A DNA stretch of 8,224 nt from IMG/VR virus record IMGVR_UViG_2648501186_000018, positions 1 to 8,224 of that record; one strand, written 5' to 3'. A program made the translations under genes and the position numbers. The stretch is from a virus. Lineage: Duplodnaviria > Heunggongvirae > Uroviricota > Caudoviricetes. Below the pieces are notes generated by a model. It made no database searches, was not told the origin of the DNA, and saw nothing but the letters and a program-made list of their open reading frames with translations. Below, in pieces: positions 1,027 to 8,224 of this stretch. Within the stretch, counting starts at the first letter, position 1. Each line of letters starts with the position of its first letter.

Positions 1027-1407
1027 TCATGCTGCCACCTTCTGCTCAGTGGCTTTCTGTTTCAGGAATCCAAGAGCTTTCACTGCTTCGGCCTGTGTCA
1101 GTTCTGACGATGCGCGAATGTCGCGGCGAAATATCTGGGAACAGAGCGGCAATAAGTCGTCATCCCATGTTTTATCCAGGGCGATCAGCAGAGTGTTAAT
1201 CTCCTGCATGGTTTCATCGTTAATGGCTTTTTTGCTGGCCCCGTGGCGTTGCAAATGATCGATGCATAGCGATTCAAACAGGTGCTGGGGCAGGCCTTTT
1301 TCCATGTCGTCTGCCAGTTCTGCCTCTTTCTCTTCACGGGCGATCTGCTGGTAGTAACGCGCCCAGCTCTGAGCCTCAAGACGATCCTGAATGTAATAAG
1401 CGTTCAT
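1027..1407 (-). CDS. Chimeric gam'-'bet ORF (126 aa). The first ~60 aa match lambda Gam from its internal GamS start; the last ~65 aa match the C-terminus of lambda Bet. Probable in-frame deletion product.
   Basis: N-terminus [60 protein letters not shown] matches the lambda Gam sequence as I recall it. C-terminus …[64 protein letters not shown] matches the end of lambda Bet as recalled. A strong Shine-Dalgarno AGGAG lies 7 nt upstream of the ATG at 1407. Both matches are from memory and need alignment to confirm. Confidence 0.75.
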
Positions 1408-1482: not shown

Positions 1483-1689
1483 TTAGCGATTCAGGCCGTT
1501 ACCGCGTCCGTCGAGAAAAACTTCCACGAGCAAATCACGGGTATAAGTGCGCTCGATGCCGCGATGCAGATAAAGCCGTCCGCGTAAATTAGCTGATGCA
1601 GTCCAGGTACCATCTTTGTGTTTGACCAGCATTCCTGGCATGACCGCACCTCGATTAACGGTCTGCGTTCCGTAATGTTGATGAACCAT
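1483..1689 (-). CDS. kil: Kil-like small protein (68 aa), similar to Rac KilR, a host FtsZ/cell-division inhibitor. The start is assigned to the ATG at 1689; the ORF track extends the frame to a TTG at 1893.
   Basis: An AGGAG Shine-Dalgarno sits 5 nt upstream of the ATG at 1687-1689. The product [68 protein letters not shown] aligns with my recollection of Rac KilR (shared PG…(V/L)xH…GT(W/Y)xASAN…R(K/R)LY…T(F/Y)xxD…(K/E)VFL). It lies immediately upstream of gam in the PL operon, which is the lambda kil position. The KilR match is from memory and needs confirmation. Confidence 0.55.
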
Positions 1690-1910
1690 AAAAACTCCTG
1701 CCCGTAAGCTGGGCTGCTGAACATATAGAGACTTCTGCGCGTATTCAGGCGGTGGATGGCCGCCGGTTGTCATAACTAAGCCGCCTCGTTGAAGCGACTG
1801 AGGTATAAAGTGTTGTGTTGATTTCAGCTGGTCACACCGACGTTCACGCGTCCGTTTCACCCCTCGCACTCCCCGAAGCCTGCTGAAATTCAAACTGCGG
1901 ATCTAAGCGG

Positions 1911-1962
1911 TCATCGCAACGGTGAAACAGGTGGTTACCGTATCGTTGTGTCGTTGCGATGA
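1911..1962 (-). repeat. Perfect 11-bp inverted repeat (TCATCGCAACG … CGTTGCGATGA) with a 30-nt spacer, at the 5' end of the predicted PL transcript.
   Basis: Read directly: 1911-1921 tcatcgcaacg and 1952-1962 cgttgcgatga are exact reverse complements. The spacer contains a second TCGTTG copy that could pair alternatively with the first arm. Confidence 0.7.
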
Positions 1963-1964
1963 AT

Positions 1965-2040
1965 TTATTTAAAACTATAGTTGTTTTATCGTCAACAACA
2001 AAAGTTGTTTTATCGGTTGTTTTAAATATAACTGGTTGTA
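1965..2040 (-). promoter_or_regulatory. PL promoter with OL operators (leftward early promoter).
   Basis: On the minus strand: -35 TTGACG (plus 1990-1995), 17-bp spacer, -10 TTAAAT (plus 1967-1972). The segment GTTGTTGACGATAAAACAACTATAGTTTTAAAT is near-identical to the PR segment GTTGTTGACTAAAAACAACCATAGTTTTAAT at 3514-3544. Operator-like elements: palindrome AACAAC-aaaa-GTTGTT at 1994-2009; GTTGTTTTATCG repeated at 1980-1991 and 2004-2015; further GTTGT copies at 2017-2021 and 2035-2039. Confidence 0.6.
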
Positions 2041-2132: not shown

Positions 2133-2161
2133 GGAAAAGAAAACCCGGCGCGGTTGCCGGG
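2133..2161 (-). terminator. Rho-independent terminator ending the cI-lipoprotein transcript.
   Basis: GC stem cccggc (2144-2149) / gccggg (2156-2161) with loop gcggtt. On the minus strand it is followed by TTTTCTTTTCC, 9 nt downstream of the lipoprotein stop. Confidence 0.7.
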
Positions 2162-2169
2162 TATGATTA

Positions 2170-2550
2170 TCAGTCAGCCCAACCTGATTTCGAGTTTATT
2201 TGGGTTTCTGACATTGTGTATTTCTTAATCGTGTCATCGTTAAAAAGAATAGTAAGTTCTTTTTTCGTACCGTTCGTTCCGTTATGGAATAATCCATAGA
2301 ATGGAATAAAAGTGGTGCCATTAACTTTTACTTTTGCAAAGGCGTACTTCCAGATCTCCTTTCCACTGTCAGTATATGAAACAGCATCAGGAGAACCAAA
2401 GTAAGATTTAACCTCATTCTTGGTTGTTTTACCTTCCTGAAGTTTAGACTGGACACTAATTTCAGTTTCATTTTTGAGTTGCTGGTTGCCTGAAGAAGCA
2501 CACCCAGCCAATACAGATGCCATCATGGCAGCGATTAGGATTTTTCTCAT
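2170..2550 (-). CDS. Outer-membrane-type lipoprotein (126 aa) of unknown function, encoded immediately downstream of cI in the position lambda uses for rexAB.
   Basis: Signal peptide MRKILIAAMMASVLAGC with lipobox LAGC, and Ala at +2 after the Cys. An RBS GGAAAC precedes the start. The mature part shows a BamE/SmpA-OmlA-like motif pattern (G.T..EV...FG.PD…W.Y.F…LTILFN), which is my inference only. It is flanked by its own terminator and separated from cI by a 229-bp AT-rich spacer. Confidence 0.8.
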   Translation of the reverse strand: MRKILIAAMMASVLAGCASSGNQQLKNETEISVQSKLQEGKTTKNEVKSYFGSPDAVSYTDSGKEIWKYAFAKVKVNGTTFIPFYGLFHNGTNGTKKELTILFNDDTIKKYTMSETQINSKSGWAD

Positions 2551-2779: not shown

Positions 2780-3469
2780 TTAACCATGCTTCCTGTACGT
2801 CTGCGGCATGCTTCCAATGACCTTACCGAATATGAACACCCGGTTCATCTCGTCTTTCTCGATCGGGTCCCACGGCGAGTAGCTCTTGTTATCAGAGATA
2901 ACCAGCAGCTTATCCTTCATCATTTGAAGACGTTTTACATGGGCAGTGTCGTCGTACAGAAACGCATAGATGCCATCACCGTCGAAAGATTTAACAGTGA
3001 TATCAACGAACAGCAGGTCACCTGGTTCGATCGTCCCTGACATGCTGTCACCTCGCACGTTAATGATGCGGATATTTTCCGCCTTCCTGCCATCGAACAT
3101 GTGACGAGCATCGTCAAACGAGTACTCAACCGAGCGTAGAACTTCTACAAACTCACGGTTGATTACACCTGGCCCGGCACTGACTTCTATATCAAGAACG
3201 TCAATTTTGAAGTATTTGGAATGGCTGACAGTTGATTGTATTGGTTGCACTGTACTGTCTGACATATTTCCAACGCCAGAAGATAACCATTCTGCGCGTA
3301 CACCCAAAGCGTTCGCGATCTCCACGATTTTAGTTGTTTGGTTAGCTTTCCCTGTTTCGATTTTCTGAATAGCAGCCTGGCTAACCCCGACCAAATCCCC
3401 AAGCGCCTTTTGTGTAAGGCCTCGCGCTAATCTGGCTTCTTTAAGTCTTTCTGAGAGTGTTGTTTTCAT
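2780..3469 (-). CDS. cI: CI-type prophage repressor: N-terminal XRE-family HTH plus C-terminal LexA-like S24 autopeptidase domain.
   Basis: HTH region LTQKALGDLVGVSQAAIQKIE. Ala-Gly cleavage site in EVSAGPG. Catalytic Ser in VRGDSM and Lys in HVKRL. It is divergent from cro across an operator region. The mRNA is probably leaderless or nearly so, since the PRM -10 lies about 7 nt upstream of the ATG. Confidence 0.95.
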   Translation of the reverse strand: MKTTLSERLKEARLARGLTQKALGDLVGVSQAAIQKIETGKANQTTKIVEIANALGVRAEWLSSGVGNMSDSTVQPIQSTVSHSKYFKIDVLDIEVSAGPGVINREFVEVLRSVEYSFDDARHMFDGRKAENIRIINVRGDSMSGTIEPGDLLFVDITVKSFDGDGIYAFLYDDTAHVKRLQMMKDKLLVISDNKSYSPWDPIEKDEMNRVFIFGKVIGSMPQTYRKHG

Positions 3470-3475
3470 AGATCA

Positions 3476-3546
3476 AATGTACAACCAAGGTTTTATTTCA
3501 TCAAACGAAAATGGTTGTTGACTAAAAACAACCATAGTTTTAATCT
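3476..3546. promoter_or_regulatory. OR operator region with divergent promoters PRM (leftward, cI) and PR (rightward, cro).
   Basis: PR: -35 TTGACT at 3518-3523, 17-bp spacer, -10 TAATCT at 3541-3546. PRM on the minus strand: -35 TTGATG (plus 3499-3504), 17-bp spacer, -10 TACATT (plus 3476-3481). Perfect 9-bp inverted repeat ATGGTTGTT-N7-AACAACCAT at 3511-3535 overlaps the PR -35. An additional ACAACCA half-site at 3481-3487 overlaps the PRM -10. Confidence 0.7.
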
Positions 3547-3573: not shown

Positions 3574-3804
3574 ATGAACCCAGCAATCAAAACAGCGATC
3601 AATATCGTTGGTTCACAAAAGAAACTAGGCGATGCCTGCGAAGTTTCACAGCAGGCCGTCTATAAGTGGCTTCACAACAAAGCAAAGGTATCCCCTGAAC
3701 ATGTCGGCAGCATTGTTACGGCTACTGGTGGAGTTGTGAAGGCATACCAGATTCGCCCGGATCTTCCGAAGTTGTTTCCACACACCGAAAAGAACGCAGC
3801 TTAA
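3574..3804 (+). CDS. cro: Cro-like HTH regulator of the YdaS type (76 aa).
   Basis: First gene downstream of PR and divergent from cI. RBS GGAGG lies 6 nt upstream of the ATG. The family-like pattern AIxxxGSQxxLxxxxxVSQQAVxxW…GGV…RPDL matches the YdaS/Cro family as I recall it. Confidence 0.85.
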   Translation: MNPAIKTAINIVGSQKKLGDACEVSQQAVYKWLHNKAKVSPEHVGSIVTATGGVVKAYQIRPDLPKLFPHTEKNAA

Positions 3805-3816
3805 ATTTCCATTTCA

Positions 3817-3829
3817 CGCTCTTTAACAA
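3817..3829 (+). promoter_or_regulatory. boxA-like element (CGCTCTTTAACAA) in the cro-O spacer, at the nutR position; no convincing boxB hairpin follows.
   Basis: Matches the rrn/lambdoid boxA consensus GCTCTTTAACAA, 13 nt after the cro stop. Downstream there is only an AGTCAATT direct repeat (3847-3854 and 3867-3874), not a GC hairpin. Confidence 0.45.
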
Positions 3830-3873: not shown

Positions 3874-5046
3874 ATGCAACCACTTACATACCAACAGACT
3901 AGCGGATTTATTCCGACTGCGGTGATAAATCGTTCTCAAACAAAACAAGCTCCAGGCCACGAAAAAATCCGTGATGCCGTCCGCGCCTGGTCGGCTGTAG
4001 ATAATCAGGATGTCGTTGCCGCACTCATTGTGAATGAGTATCGGGAGCAGGGCGACGGCACCATCGATTTCCCTGATGATGTCAGCCGTGCACGCCAGAA
4101 GCTGTTCCGCTTCCTCGATAACAAATTCGATTCTGAAAAATACCGAAATAACGTGCGTGAACTGACCCCGGCAATTCTGGCGGTACTACCGCTGGAATAT
4201 CGCGGTTACCTGGTTGAGCAGGATAGCTTCATGACTCGGTTGGCCGGATTAACACAGCACCAGCTTCTGGTCTTCCTGGCTGTCATGCGCAAAACATATG
4301 GCTTTAATAAAAGACTGGATTGGGTGAGCAACGAGCAACTTTCCGAATTGACCGGGATATTGCCGCACAAGTGTTCTGCTGCAAAAAGCGTTCTGGTAAA
4401 GCGTGGGATTCTTATTCAGAGCGGGCGAAATATCGGCATTAATAATGTGGTCAGTGAATGGTCAACATTACCCGAATCAGGTAAGAAAAATAAAGTTTAC
4501 CTGAAAGAGGTAAATTTACCTGAATCAGGTAAGAAAAGTTTACCCAAATCAGGTAAAGGCGTTTACCCGAATCAGGTAAACACAAAAGACAAACTAACAA
4601 AAGACAATATAAAACCTTTTTCGTCCGAGAATTCTGGCGAATCCTCTGACCAGCCAGAAAACGACCTTCCTGTGGTGAAACCGGATGCTGCAATTCAGAG
4701 TGGCAGCAAGTGGGGGACAGCAGAAGACCTGACCGCCGCAGAGTGGATGTTTGACATGGTGAAGACCATCGCGCCATCAGCCAGAAAACCGAATTTTGCA
4801 GGGTGGGCTAACGATATCCGCCTGATGCGTGAACGTGACGGACGTAACCACCGCGACATGTGCGTGCTGTTCCGCTGGGCATGCCAGGACAACTTCTGGT
4901 CCGGTAACGTGCTGAGTCCGGCCAAACTCCGCGACAAGTGGACCCAGCTCGAAATCAACCGAAACAAGCAACAGGCTGGCGTGACAGCCGGCAAACCAAA
5001 ACTCGACCTGACGAACACTGACTGGATTTACGGGGTGGATTTATGA
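3874..5046 (+). CDS. O: Replication initiator, lambda O-like (390 aa), with the origin embedded in the gene.
   Basis: The N-terminal domain shares the lambda O signature (LTQHQLLVFLAVMRKTYGFNKRLDWVSNEQLSELTGILPHKCSAAKSVLVKRGILIQ versus lambda O LTKRQFKVLLAILRKTYGWNKPMDRITDSQLSEITKLP…). RBS AAGGAG precedes the start. The gene overlaps P by ATGA and contains the iterons listed separately. Confidence 0.9.
   Translation: MQPLTYQQTSGFIPTAVINRSQTKQAPGHEKIRDAVRAWSAVDNQDVVAALIVNEYREQGDGTIDFPDDVSRARQKLFRFLDNKFDSEKYRNNVRELTPAILAVLPLEYRGYLVEQDSFMTRLAGLTQHQLLVFLAVMRKTYGFNKRLDWVSNEQLSELTGILPHKCSAAKSVLVKRGILIQSGRNIGINNVVSEWSTLPESGKKNKVYLKEVNLPESGKKSLPKSGKGVYPNQVNTKDKLTKDNIKPFSSENSGESSDQPENDLPVVKPDAAIQSGSKWGTAEDLTAAEWMFDMVKTIAPSARKPNFAGWANDIRLMRERDGRNHRDMCVLFRWACQDNFWSGNVLSPAKLRDKWTQLEINRNKQQAGVTAGKPKLDLTNTDWIYGVDL
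4468..4579. repeat. Origin iterons: five 17-bp palindromic repeats TTACC-N7-GGTAA inside the O gene, followed by an A/T-rich stretch (4580-4622).
   Basis: Copies at 4468-4484, 4497-4513 (degenerate), 4516-4532, 4540-4556 and 4563-4579. They are mirrored in the protein as repeated PESGKK/PKSGK motifs. This is the lambda ori architecture, with different iteron sequence. Confidence 0.85.
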
Positions 5047-5744
5047 AAAACATCGCCGCACAGATGGTTAACTTTGACCGTGAGCAGATGCGCCGGATCG
5101 CCAACAATATGCCGGAACAGTACGACGAAAAGCCGCAGGTACAGCAGGTAGCGCAGATCATCAACGGTGTGTTCAGCCAGTTACTGGCAACTTTCCCGGC
5201 GAGCCTGGCTAACCGTGACCAGAATGAACTGAACGAAATCCGCCGCCAGTGGGTTCTGGCTTTCCGGGAAAACGGGATCACCACAATGGAACAGGTTAAC
5301 GCTGGAATGCGCGTAGCCCGTCGGCAGAATCGACCATTCCTGCCATCACCCGGGCAGTTTGTCGCCTGGTGCCGGGAAGAAGCATCTGTTAACGCCGGGC
5401 TGCCAAACGTCAGCGAGCTGGTTGATATGGTTTACGAGTATTGCCGGAAGCGTGGCCTGTATCCGGATGCAGAGTCTTATCCGTGGAAATCGAACGCGCA
5501 TTACTGGTTGGTTACCAACTTGTACCAGAACATGCGGGCCAATGCGCTGGCTGACGCGGAATTACGGCGCAAGGCTGCCGATGAACTGACCTGTATGACA
5601 GCGCGAATTAACCGTGGTGAGACGATACCTGAACCAGTAAAACAACTTCCTGTTATGGGCGGTAGACCTCTAAATCGTGCACAGGCTCTGGCGAAGATCG
5701 CAGAAATTAAAGCTAAGTTCGGACTGAAAGGAGCAAGTGTATGA
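5043..5744 (+). CDS. P: Replication protein P (DnaB helicase loader), nearly identical to lambda P.
   Basis: The 233-aa product MKNIAAQMVNFDREQMRRIANNMPEQYDEKPQVQQVAQIINGV…AKFGLKGASV matches lambda P as recalled, with only a few substitutions. The start overlaps the O stop (ATGA) and the stop overlaps the ren start. Confidence 0.95.
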   Translation: MKNIAAQMVNFDREQMRRIANNMPEQYDEKPQVQQVAQIINGVFSQLLATFPASLANRDQNELNEIRRQWVLAFRENGITTMEQVNAGMRVARRQNRPFLPSPGQFVAWCREEASVNAGLPNVSELVDMVYEYCRKRGLYPDAESYPWKSNAHYWLVTNLYQNMRANALADAELRRKAADELTCMTARINRGETIPEPVKQLPVMGGRPLNRAQALAKIAEIKAKFGLKGASV

Positions 5745-6043
5745 CGGGCAAAGAGGCAATTATTCATTACCTGGGGACGCATAAGAGCTTCTGTGCACAG
5801 GACGTTGCCGCGGTAACAGGCGCAACCGTAACCAGCATAAATCAGGCTGCGGCTAAAATGGCGCGGGCAGGAATCCTGGTCGTTGATGGTAAGGTCTGGC
5901 GAACGGTGTATTACCGGTTCGCTACCAGAGAAGAATGGGAAGGAAAGGTGAGCACGAATCTGATTTTTAAGGAGTGTCGCCAGAGTGCCGCGATGAAACG
6001 GGTATTGAGGGTATATAAAAGAACATCAATGGGAACACAATGA
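5741..6043 (+). CDS. ren: Ren (lambda ren-like; protects against Rex exclusion), 100 aa.
   Basis: MTGKEAIIHYLGTHKSFCAQDVAAVTGATVTSINQAAAKMARAGILVVDGKVWRTVYYRFATREEWEGK… matches lambda Ren as recalled. The C-terminal tail differs slightly. The start overlaps the P stop by ATGA. Confidence 0.9.
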   Translation: MTGKEAIIHYLGTHKSFCAQDVAAVTGATVTSINQAAAKMARAGILVVDGKVWRTVYYRFATREEWEGKVSTNLIFKECRQSAAMKRVLRVYKRTSMGTQ

Positions 6044-6060
6044 TGAAACAGGTGAGTTGA

Positions 6061-6095
6061 GTTCAAACTGTAGTACAATTCTCTCCAGTTTGAAC
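6061..6095 (+). repeat. Perfect 10-bp inverted repeat GTTCAAACTG-N15-CAGTTTGAAC in the emrE 5' leader.
   Basis: Read directly; it lies between the ren stop (6043) and the emrE RBS. No T-tract follows, so it is not a classical terminator. Confidence 0.6.
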
Positions 6096-6110
6096 AGGAA
6101 AGAATATGCT

Positions 6111-6443
6111 ATGAACCCTTATATTTATCTTGGTGGTGCAATACTTGCAGAGGTCATTGGTACAGCCTTAATGAAGTTTTCAGAAGGTTTTACACGGTTA
6201 TGGCCATCTGTTGGTACAATTATTTGTTATTGTGCATCATTCTGGTTATTAGCTCAGACGCTGGCTTATATTCCTACAGGGATTGCTTATGCTATCTGGT
6301 CAGGAGTCGGTATTGTCCTGATTAGCTTACTGTCATGGGGATTTTTCGGCCAACGGCTGGACCTGCCAGCCATTATAGGCATGATGTTGATTTGTGCCGG
6401 TGTGTTGATTATTAATTTATTGTCACGAAGCACACCACATTAA
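6111..6443 (+). CDS. emrE: EmrE small multidrug resistance (SMR) efflux transporter, 110 aa.
   Basis: The product MNPYIYLGGAILAEVIGT.LMKFSEGFTRLWPSVGTIICYCASFWLLAQTLAYIPTGIAYAIWSGVGIVLISLLSWGFFGQRLDLPAIIGMMLICAGVLIINLLSRSTPH matches E. coli EmrE as recalled, with four TM-like hydrophobic segments. The ORF-track start at 6057 is a TTG extension; the real start is the ATG at 6111, preceded by AGGAAAG. Confidence 0.95.
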   Translation: MNPYIYLGGAILAEVIGTALMKFSEGFTRLWPSVGTIICYCASFWLLAQTLAYIPTGIAYAIWSGVGIVLISLLSWGFFGQRLDLPAIIGMMLICAGVLIINLLSRSTPH

Positions 6444-6473
6444 AATAATTTGTTTCTAAACGACTAAAATATG

Positions 6474-6512
6474 GAGGCTCTTATATTTATATGAGCCTCG
6501 TTTTATGCTTTT
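6474..6512 (+). terminator. Rho-independent terminator downstream of emrE.
   Basis: Stem gaggctc (6474-6480) / gagcctc (6493-6499) with a 12-nt AT loop, followed by TTTTATGCTTTTT. Confidence 0.65.
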
Positions 6513-6697
6513 TGTTAATGTCTTTATTTTTTATGTATTCTTTTGTGCTTTCAAGATTATGGCGTAAGAAAATTGCAATACGATTATTGTTGTATATTCA
6601 AGATAATGTGACCTTAATTGTCTTTTTAAATAAAAAATAAACAAAAATTATATCCCACCACTAAGGTTTATAAAAGCATACGTTAGCAGGTGTCACC

Positions 6698-8224
6698 ATG
6701 AAAAAAGCCATAGCATATATGCGATTTTCATCACCAGGTCAGATGTCTGGCGACTCATTAAACCGACAGAGAAGACTTATTGCTGAATGGTTAAAGGTAA
6801 ATAGTGATTATTATCTTGATACCATAACATATGAAGATTTAGGATTAAGTGCATTCAAAGGAAAGCATGCACAATCAGGAGCTTTTTCGGAATTTTTAGA
6901 TGCTATAGAGCATGGTTATATATTGCCAGGAACTACATTGTTAGTTGAAAGTCTGGACAGACTTTCAAGAGAAAAAGTCGGTGAAGCGATTGAACGTCTG
7001 AAATTGATTTTGAATCACGGTATTGATGTTATAACTCTTTGCGACAATACAGTCTATAATATTGGCTCTTTGAATGAGCCATATTCATTAATAAAAGCCA
7101 TACTTATAGCACAAAGGGCAAATGAAGAAAGCGAGATAAAGTCAAGTCGGGTTAAATTATCATGGAAGAAAAAACGGCAGGATGCACTGGAATCAGGTAC
7201 GATTATGACGGCGTCTTGTCCGAGATGGCTCTCCTTAGATGACAAAAGAACGGCTTTTGTTCCAGACCCCGACAGGGTGAAAACTATTGAGCTAATTTTT
7301 AAACTCAGGATGGAAAGGCGCTCATTGAATGCAATAGCCAAGTATTTAAATGATCATGCTGTAAAGAATTTCTCAGGAAAAGAAAGTGCATGGGGACCTT
7401 CTGTAATTGAAAAATTATTAGCGAATAAAGCTCTGATAGGTATTTGCGTACCTTCATATCGTGCAAGAGGGAAAGGGATAAGTGAAATCGCTGGCTATTA
7501 TCCCAGAGTCATATCAGATGATTTGTTTTACGCTGTACAGGAAATTCGGTTGGCACCTTTTGGTATTAGCAATAGTAGCAAGAATCCTATGCTAATAAAT
7601 CTACTTCGAACAGTTATGAAGTGTGAGGCTTGTGGTAATACCATGATTGTTCATGCGGTATCTGGAAGTTTGCATGGCTATTATGTTTGTCCGATGAGAA
7701 GATTACATCGATGTGACAGGCCATCAATAAAAAGAGATTTGGTTGATTATAATATCATTAATGAATTGCTTTTTAATTGTAGCAAAATTCAACCAGTTGA
7801 AAACAAGAAAGATGCTAATGAAACTTTAGAGTTAAAAATTATTGAGCTTCAGATGAAAATTAATAATTTAATCGTTGCATTGTCTGTCGCGCCTGAAGTT
7901 ACCGCTATAGCAGAGAAAATAAGACTATTAGATAAGGAATTACGAAGGGCTTCGGTATCATTGAAAACTTTGAAGAGTAAAGGTGTAAATTCATTCAGTG
8001 ATTTTTATGCTATTGACTTAACCAGTAAAAATGGACGAGAGTTATGCCGTACACTTGCCTATAAAACATTCGAAAAAATCATAATTAATACGGATAATAA
8101 AACCTGTGATATCTATTTTATGAATGGCATTGTTTTTAAACACTATCCTTTAATGAAAGTAATATCCGCCCAGCAGGCGATAAGTGCTCTCAAATATATG
8201 GTTGATGGTGAGATTTATTTCTAA
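6698..8224 (+). CDS. ybcK: Large serine recombinase, YbcK-like (508 aa): resolvase-type catalytic domain, recombinase domain, zinc-ribbon and coiled-coil.
   Basis: N-terminal catalytic motif AYMRFSSPGQ…R with the Ser nucleophile. Cys-rich zinc-ribbon CEACGN…CPMRRLHRC. Coiled-coil segment LELKIIELQMKINNLIVAL. RBS AGGTG lies 6 nt upstream. It follows emrE as in K-12 DLP12 (from memory). Confidence 0.9.
   Translation: MKKAIAYMRFSSPGQMSGDSLNRQRRLIAEWLKVNSDYYLDTITYEDLGLSAFKGKHAQSGAFSEFLDAIEHGYILPGTTLLVESLDRLSREKVGEAIERLKLILNHGIDVITLCDNTVYNIGSLNEPYSLIKAILIAQRANEESEIKSSRVKLSWKKKRQDALESGTIMTASCPRWLSLDDKRTAFVPDPDRVKTIELIFKLRMERRSLNAIAKYLNDHAVKNFSGKESAWGPSVIEKLLANKALIGICVPSYRARGKGISEIAGYYPRVISDDLFYAVQEIRLAPFGISNSSKNPMLINLLRTVMKCEACGNTMIVHAVSGSLHGYYVCPMRRLHRCDRPSIKRDLVDYNIINELLFNCSKIQPVENKKDANETLELKIIELQMKINNLIVALSVAPEVTAIAEKIRLLDKELRRASVSLKTLKSKGVNSFSDFYAIDLTSKNGRELCRTLAYKTFEKIIINTDNKTCDIYFMNGIVFKHYPLMKVISAQQAISALKYMVDGEIYF

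Follow-up and report, generated by a model that had tools for sequence, protein, structure and literature searches.

KilR (b1352), the product of the Rac prophage kilR gene, inhibits both FtsZ and MreB; its toxicity is relieved by FtsZ and depends on the C-terminal tail, and removal of three residues abolishes the effect on MreB and leaves division inhibition in place (PMC12482147). A kilR-dependent division arrest has been described, with Rac kilR silenced by NusG/Rho (PMC5793797). The Kil protein of lambda and KilR are treated as unrelated and differ in their genetic requirements (PMC12482147). In Rac, racR could not be deleted in a delta-kilR strain, a viable Rac deletion left kilR intact without racR, and essentiality of the repressor was assigned to ydaS/ydaT (PMC5700373). 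The preliminary description of the locus considered here had taken Rac kilR as the gene that makes its repressor indispensable, a precedent that these genetic results contradict.

The window, i.e. the whole 8,224-nt stretch of viral DNA analysed (IMG/VR record IMGVR_UViG_2648501186_000018), adjoins the argU tRNA, which is the site of the DLP12 cryptic prophage in K-12, and is 100% identical to the chromosome of the pig ETEC strain ETEC4073 over the 1.9 kb compared. Leftward of cI lie a lipoprotein gene, kil, a gam'-'bet fusion and an integrase gene without its N-terminus; rightward lie cro, a 390-aa cII'-'O fusion, P, ren, emrE, ylcJ and ybcK. The argU site is held in common with K-12 DLP12, as are, at 99.9-100% identity, int' (intD), the P fragment (peaD), ren (renD), emrE, ylcJ and ybcK, the identical stretches being 1-1005 and 5433-8224 of the window. 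DLP12 of K-12 differs in having lost the whole kil-PL-cI-cro-O block, cI and kil together, and in carrying IS3 in ren, whereas the window keeps the block. Because its flanks are identical at this level, the locus resembles a version of DLP12 in which less has been deleted and the immunity and replication region is retained.

Deletions were mapped against Escherichia phage PhiR26_1, a complete genome with MG1655 as host according to its record, to which the window is 99.3-99.8% identical across most shared segments. One deletion of 2.3 kb runs from the int N-terminus to the end of bet, a second of 704 bp joins bet' to gam', and a third of 383 bp joins cII to O in frame. The 704-bp deletion created the gam'-'bet fusion (1027-1407, minus strand; Gam(1-64) with the C-terminus of Bet), which is the next ORF on the putative PL transcript. 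With the loss of the int N-terminus, of xis and exo, and of most of bet and part of gam, the prophage cannot excise. Several pig ETEC strains carry the same bet-gam deletion with an identical kil-cI block; this common deletion reflects an inherited remnant and is not evidence of selection.

The kil gene (1483-1689, minus strand; RefSeq WP_000233577.1) encodes 68 aa from an ATG at 1689-1687 to a stop at 1485-1483. Read from the sequence, a Shine-Dalgarno AGGAG at 1695-1699 is followed by a TTTTT spacer that places the ATG 5 bases on. The ORF, its ribosome-binding site and its likeness to KilR had all been proposed in the preliminary description, and each is borne out. The BLASTP alignment with Rac KilR spans 61 residues at 36% identity (E 9e-13), residues 1-59 aligning with KilR 1-61 and Met1 falling on Met1, as it also does with the Kil proteins of HK225 and phi80. 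The protein matches PHROG 294, 'Kil protein for bacterial septation inhibition', with an E-value of 1.7e-37. The NCBIfam model NF008465, 'FtsZ inhibitor protein', matches at E 3.6e-17 with 62.1 bits, short of its curated cut-off of 92 bits, and the protein thus represents a sister subfamily, outside the Rac-type subfamily proper. It shows no likeness to lambda Kil, there being no alignment with the 47-aa protein at E <= 100. The local copy of Pfam gave no match to the ORF, although all of its database homologues are labelled PF27398 as a precomputed domain, and a PDB sequence search with the family profile gave no match.

RefSeq names the protein 'phage encoded cell division inhibitor protein', and homologues across the Enterobacteriaceae carry the name 'cell division inhibitor protein'. 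It occurs at 100% identity in phages Turner, Perceval, Lambda_4C10 and PhiR30_1, at 84-85% in HK225 and mEp237 and at 40% in phi80, and the DNA of kil with its leader is present in 2239 of 5426 complete E. coli genomes. Among seven aligned phages, chosen by DNA similarity of the region upstream of kil, 9 of the 11 variable sites in kil are third codon positions, and the ORF is under purifying selection. The 68-aa gene is an ordinary, already-annotated prophage kil at the usual place for its phage type. As a common and already-named division inhibitor in its usual place, it changes little by itself.

Compared with Rac, the homology extends to the same start, a similar length, a structured core with a short and probably flexible C-terminal tail, and the location of the gene, which in both prophages lies in the early-left operon with the immunity region on one side and the recombination genes on the other, as would be expected of a KilR-family gene of about 70 aa. 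The tail is 12 residues long in KilR and 9 here, a difference that counts against a fully KilR-like action, as tail length mattered for the dual activity of KilR (PMC12482147). In Rac, ydaG, ydaF, sieB and the KilS sRNA lie between racR and kilR, whereas here kil comes first after PL; the repressor here is also of the S24, self-cleaving cI type. The Kil proteins of phi80, HK225 and mEp237 belong to the same family (PHROG 294; 40-85% identity) and their genes have the same leader element upstream. In phi80 this element follows N and tL1A and precedes other ORFs before kil, whereas here N is absent and PL would feed the leader directly. Lambda Kil, a ZipA-dependent FtsZ inhibitor, has an analogous role and an analogous position upstream of gam without detectable sequence similarity.

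The putative PL promoter (1967-1995, minus strand) comprises a -35 TTGACG at 1995-1990, a 17-nt spacer and a -10 TTAAAT at 1972-1967, and its core is approximately identical (95%) to the PR core at 3511-3545. The OL operators (1971-2023, minus strand) consist of the 17-mer AAAACAACTATAGTTTT at 1971-1987, a second copy at 1995-2011 and a half-site AAAACAAC at 2016-2023. The operator 17-mer AAAACAACYATAGTTTT is found both at 1971-1987 and, in the OR/PR region (3481-3545, plus strand; -35 TTGACT at 3518-3523), at 3525-3541, while the copy at 1995-2011 is degenerate; the operator patterns have 0.09 and 0.6 matches expected by chance. No operator-like repeats were found in the 229 bases adjoining cI. 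In the seven-phage alignment the terminator at 2143-2162, the roughly 95 bases after it, the leader and kil are nearly invariant, and a block at about 1958-2051 is wholly replaced in phages of a second immunity type, in which TTGATA-N17-TATTAT occupies the same alignment columns as PL. A third immunity type was seen in IMG/VR contigs.

This alignment settles that PL/OL do not lie next to cI. Between them are a lipoprotein gene (2170-2550, minus strand; PHROG 3135, with a weak BamE-like match) and an intrinsic terminator of the cI-lipoprotein, or immunity, transcript (2143-2162, minus strand), just upstream of OL/PL and kept in all relatives; kil therefore heads the PL operon, some 270 bases away from the inferred start. 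In the interval separating kil from PL, the terminator scan called no terminator-like site. In lambda, rexAB lie between cI and PL, and the lipoprotein gene and terminator hold the same position here. The lipoprotein is named 'SEN1984 family lipoprotein' or BamE in some genomes. Relatives carry other cargo in the slot, e.g. a HipA-like pair or unknown ORFs, and the interval between cI and PL is thus a moron hotspot.

The cI gene (2780-3469, minus strand) is intact and encodes HTH_3 and Peptidase_S24 domains. In alignment with lambda cI, its Ala98-Gly99, Ser142 and Lys179 fall on the cleavage site and the catalytic residues, so that RecA-stimulated self-cleavage is plausible, in agreement with the SOS-cleavable repressor first proposed. 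At the level of sequence, the proposed direct operator control of kil by cI is supported by the arrangement of promoter and operators, in which kil immediately follows a PL with operators that match the ones at PR.

It had further been noted that N and cIII are missing. Neither is present between PL and gam' in the window, but their absence is not decay. The complete phages PhiR26_1, Perceval and Lambda_4C10 have the order cI, moron, PL, kil, gam, bet, exo, which recurs in more than 60 distinct IMG/VR sequences of three immunity types, and neither gene occurs in the interval from PL to kil in any of the complete phages or of the 69 distinct relatives examined. Because complete genomes share it, the N-less layout is native to a widespread lambdoid phage group. 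PhiR26_1, a phage without N, has a good terminator-like site, GGAGCTACAGGCTCC followed by TTTTTT (1986-2000, minus strand, PhiR26_1 numbering), in its PL operon between orf61 and a TraR-like gene. A literature search on Bievrevirus and PhiR26 returned nothing useful. For the reading of such loci, the corrections that matter are that PL does not adjoin cI, that the lack of N and cIII is native and that the Rac precedent is contradicted.

From the gene identity, homology, promoter and operator layout, intact cI and native N-less architecture that can be read in the DNA, we infer transcription from PL, a toxic Kil with its target, and an effect on the maintenance of the repressor. The explanation that we consider quite probable as a whole is that this is the kil of an N-less lambdoid prophage of the Perceval/PhiR26_1 type at argU, and that cI, from 0.8 kb away, binds the three operators of PL. 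In the lysogen cI would keep PL shut while the lipoprotein would be expressed. Once cI is cleaved during SOS or lost, PL would fire and the leader of about 270 nt would be transcribed with kil; Kil would be made from its own AGGAG/ATG signals and, if it acts like its homologue Rac KilR, would block the Z-ring and FtsZ-dependent division and possibly MreB. That Kil might inhibit division only and not MreB, its tail being three residues shorter than that of KilR, is speculation. Because the prophage cannot excise, derepression would harm the host without phage release, and loss of cI alone would be disfavoured. Repressor addiction and an SOS-triggered division block are both plausible on this analysis. 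Such addiction, if true, would help explain why remnants at the DLP12 site can keep an intact immunity region that K-12 has lost.

Kil is not the sole candidate killer under cI. Cro (3574-3804, plus strand) matches Pfam YdaS_toxin, a family that also contains the Rac protein responsible, when derepressed, for racR essentiality. The cII'-'O fusion (3874-5046, plus strand) joins in frame about 123 N-terminal residues of a YdaT-family cII-like protein, which match Pfam YdaT_toxin, to O, and P is intact. The O' part of the fusion retains iteron-like repeats at about 4465-4582, which also gave spurious weak Rfam matches. With a YdaS-like Cro, a YdaT-like cII'-'O, an intact P and the iteron-like repeats all present, the right arm is at least as good a candidate as kil for making cI indispensable. 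Just past cro, in the nutR position, is a perfect rrn-type boxA, CGCTCTTTAACAA (3817-3829, plus strand); no convincing boxB hairpin follows it.

Kil may accordingly be a passenger, the cI-kil block having been kept only because the deletions are recent or because cI must silence the operon to its right (YdaS-like Cro, YdaT-like cII'-'O and P, with in-situ replication), so that Kil would add little to addiction. The assignment of Rac repressor essentiality to ydaS/ydaT and not to kilR (PMC5700373) favours this account, as do the toxin-family matches of Cro and cII', the intact P and the retained iteron-like repeats, and the 99.6% identity of the remnant to complete PhiR26_1, from which it follows that the decay is recent. 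The cII-like protein is truncated and fused, however, and the O domain of the fusion is without its first ~22 profile positions, at the start of the N-terminal domain, so that toxicity of the right arm is uncertain; the kil ORF, by comparison, is fully intact with promoter, Shine-Dalgarno sequence and leader. We regard the passenger account as a substantial possibility, if a minority one.

The region between PL and kil offers a further level of possible control. The leader (1690-1960, minus strand; about 270 nt and inferred to be untranslated) is nearly invariant across phages of three immunity types and contains a conserved RNA element of 70 nt (1740-1809, minus strand), composed of a two-helix hairpin followed by an invariant GGCGG-CCAUCCA-CCGCC hairpin. 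In the first hairpin the outer helix (1808-1804 with 1774-1770) pairs CAUA with UAUG and buries an AUG at 1773-1771, and the inner helix (1799-1791 with 1787-1779) buries a Shine-Dalgarno-like GAGG, its 3' arm always beginning GAG. The second hairpin pairs GGCGG at 1764-1760 with CCGCC at 1752-1748. Six of the nine inner-helix pairs change on both sides, with 97.5% of cells paired. Over the two-helix structure 98.4% of cells pair, versus 36-61% with slid partners, and 0 of 500 shuffles reach the observed score; this covarying hairpin lies outside the search pattern used to collect copies. A covariance model scores the element at 92 bits, as a single copy in the window, and its MFE is -23 kcal/mol (z -3.3).

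No Rfam family matched anywhere near kil at E <= 1. The element is common to HK225 (3363-3432) and phi80 (2990-3058, each in the numbering of the compared sequence), an exact 26-mer of it is present in more than 120 IMG/VR contigs, and it is also found in several enterobacterial genera. A KilR-family ORF follows within 900 bases in 77 of 97 usable copies, at distances of 85-766. In the copies inspected the element usually stands directly after an intrinsic terminator, in phi80 after tL1A and N. The covariance model found no copy in Rac, and neither the KilS sRNA nor the region upstream of kilR in Rac shows significant similarity. Lambda and HK022 gave weak partial matches to the first hairpin alone (14 and 20 bits). 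The lambda match, CATACC...AACGCTTCACTCGAGGCGTT...GTTATG (2476-2524, minus strand, in the numbering of that sequence), is just upstream of cIII, and a U-run follows the homologous hairpin. The tL2 terminator cluster of lambda presumably lies in this general region, and the lambda hairpin may already be a known terminator. The tL2a terminator lies between ral and ea10, where it forms the 3' end of the PreS/LPR1 sRNA (bioRxiv 10.1101/2024.10.31.621285).

Other roles for the element were considered and rejected. A conserved mini-protein, MTTGGHPPP from the AUG at 1773, is contradicted by copies in which 1-nt or 5-nt deletions alter the peptide and keep GCGGC(C/U)AUCCACCGC. As to an RNA of the HK022 put type, the left arm of HK022 is without similar sequence.

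The element is unannotated in the records examined and is the sole mildly new item at this locus. It may be an undescribed cis-acting RNA that serves kil and other toxic early-left genes as a safety gate at the post-transcriptional level, whether as attenuator, Rho entry site or translational operator, and that in N-less phages might in part replace N/nut; this is a tentative proposal, which we are inclined to doubt. The conserved leader RNA would be a small addition to what is known of the control of toxic early phage genes. The leader, structured and C-rich, may limit Kil output even with PL open. A stronger form of the same idea is that Kil output is gated mainly after initiation, the leader (hairpin, mini-ORF and C-rich, rut-like tract) attenuating or terminating PL transcripts so that Kil is made only under special conditions, e.g. 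reduced Rho/NusG, and not simply upon cI loss. The covarying hairpin 90 nt upstream of kil agrees with this, as does the tract at 1832-1742, which contains much C and little G (C/G ratio about 1.6) and is compatible with a Rho entry site. So do the lack of an N to suppress termination in this phage type, the control of Rac kilR by NusG (PMC5793797) and the U-run after the homologous lambda hairpin. The scan, however, did not call the hairpin a terminator, and complete relatives must transcribe gam, bet and exo through the leader. Gating chiefly at this step is a doubtful alternative to control by cI at PL.

The direct-control explanation also presupposes that Kil acts on division. The AF2 model (pLDDT 82) predicts a small beta-barrel of six strands and a C-terminal tail of lower confidence, mean pLDDT being 87-91 at residues 11-60 versus 66 at residues 61-68; the tail of 9 residues is glycine-rich. 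As the predicted fold is a generic SH3/KOW/Tudor-like barrel, identity to KilR is just 36% and the score is below the NCBIfam cut-off, the name may have been carried over from Rac KilR to a subfamily that does something else early in infection. The conserved early-left position beside the recombination genes, and the core residues and glycine-rich tail in common with phi80 Kil and KilR, make this improbable, and division inhibition remains the preferred reading of the gene.

The preliminary description had also noted that the kil frame stays open upstream, and had suggested a gene remnant. The frame is indeed open for about 68-71 codons, and a TTG at 1893-1891 without a Shine-Dalgarno sequence would give a protein of 136 aa; the other two frames of the stretch contain 5 and 3 stops, and 68 open codons are expected by chance at about 0.04 in composition-matched shuffles. 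Among 64 distinct related sequences the frame is open in 53 and broken in 11. In 6 of the 11, PhiR5_1 and PhiR70_1 among them, the break is a CAG to TAG change at 1800; the remaining 5 are interrupted by other changes. PhiR30_1 has one additional T between the Shine-Dalgarno sequence and the ATG, a frameshift just before the kil start, another relative has a 5-nt insertion in the leader, and HK225, phi80 and one contig have unrelated sequence or stops in place of the extension. The variable sites of the extension divide 8, 5 and 7 among the codon positions (our own count), with no third-position excess, and deposited annotations disagree on the length of kil (68, 96, 125 or 139 aa). In view of the broken frames, the lack of a third-position excess and the disagreeing annotations, we conclude that the 68-aa protein is the conserved unit and the extension a conserved leader, not a gene remnant or conserved coding region.

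A longer true product, of 96, 125 or 136 aa and started at ATG 1773, GTG 1860 or TTG 1893, is very unlikely: the frame is open in most relatives, GTG 1860 follows a GGGGAG by 8 bases and is replaced by ATG in one relative, and several phage annotations use a longer form, but the stops and the PhiR30_1 frameshift break it, the homologues of HK225, phi80, Klebsiella and Rac begin at the aligned Met, the variable sites show no third-position excess and copies of the leader motif persist with shifted reading frames.

An N-like protein in the extension was likewise rejected: the frame meets a stop at codon 21 in six distinct sequences, substitutions have no clear codon bias, and neither a boxB-like hairpin nor a leftward boxA was found. 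A possible short ORF runs from GTG 1860 to 1801 (minus strand). Several common polymorphisms are synonymous in this frame, yet the six sequences stop at that codon. Its peptide starts MKRTRERRCDQLK and resembles an arginine-rich motif.
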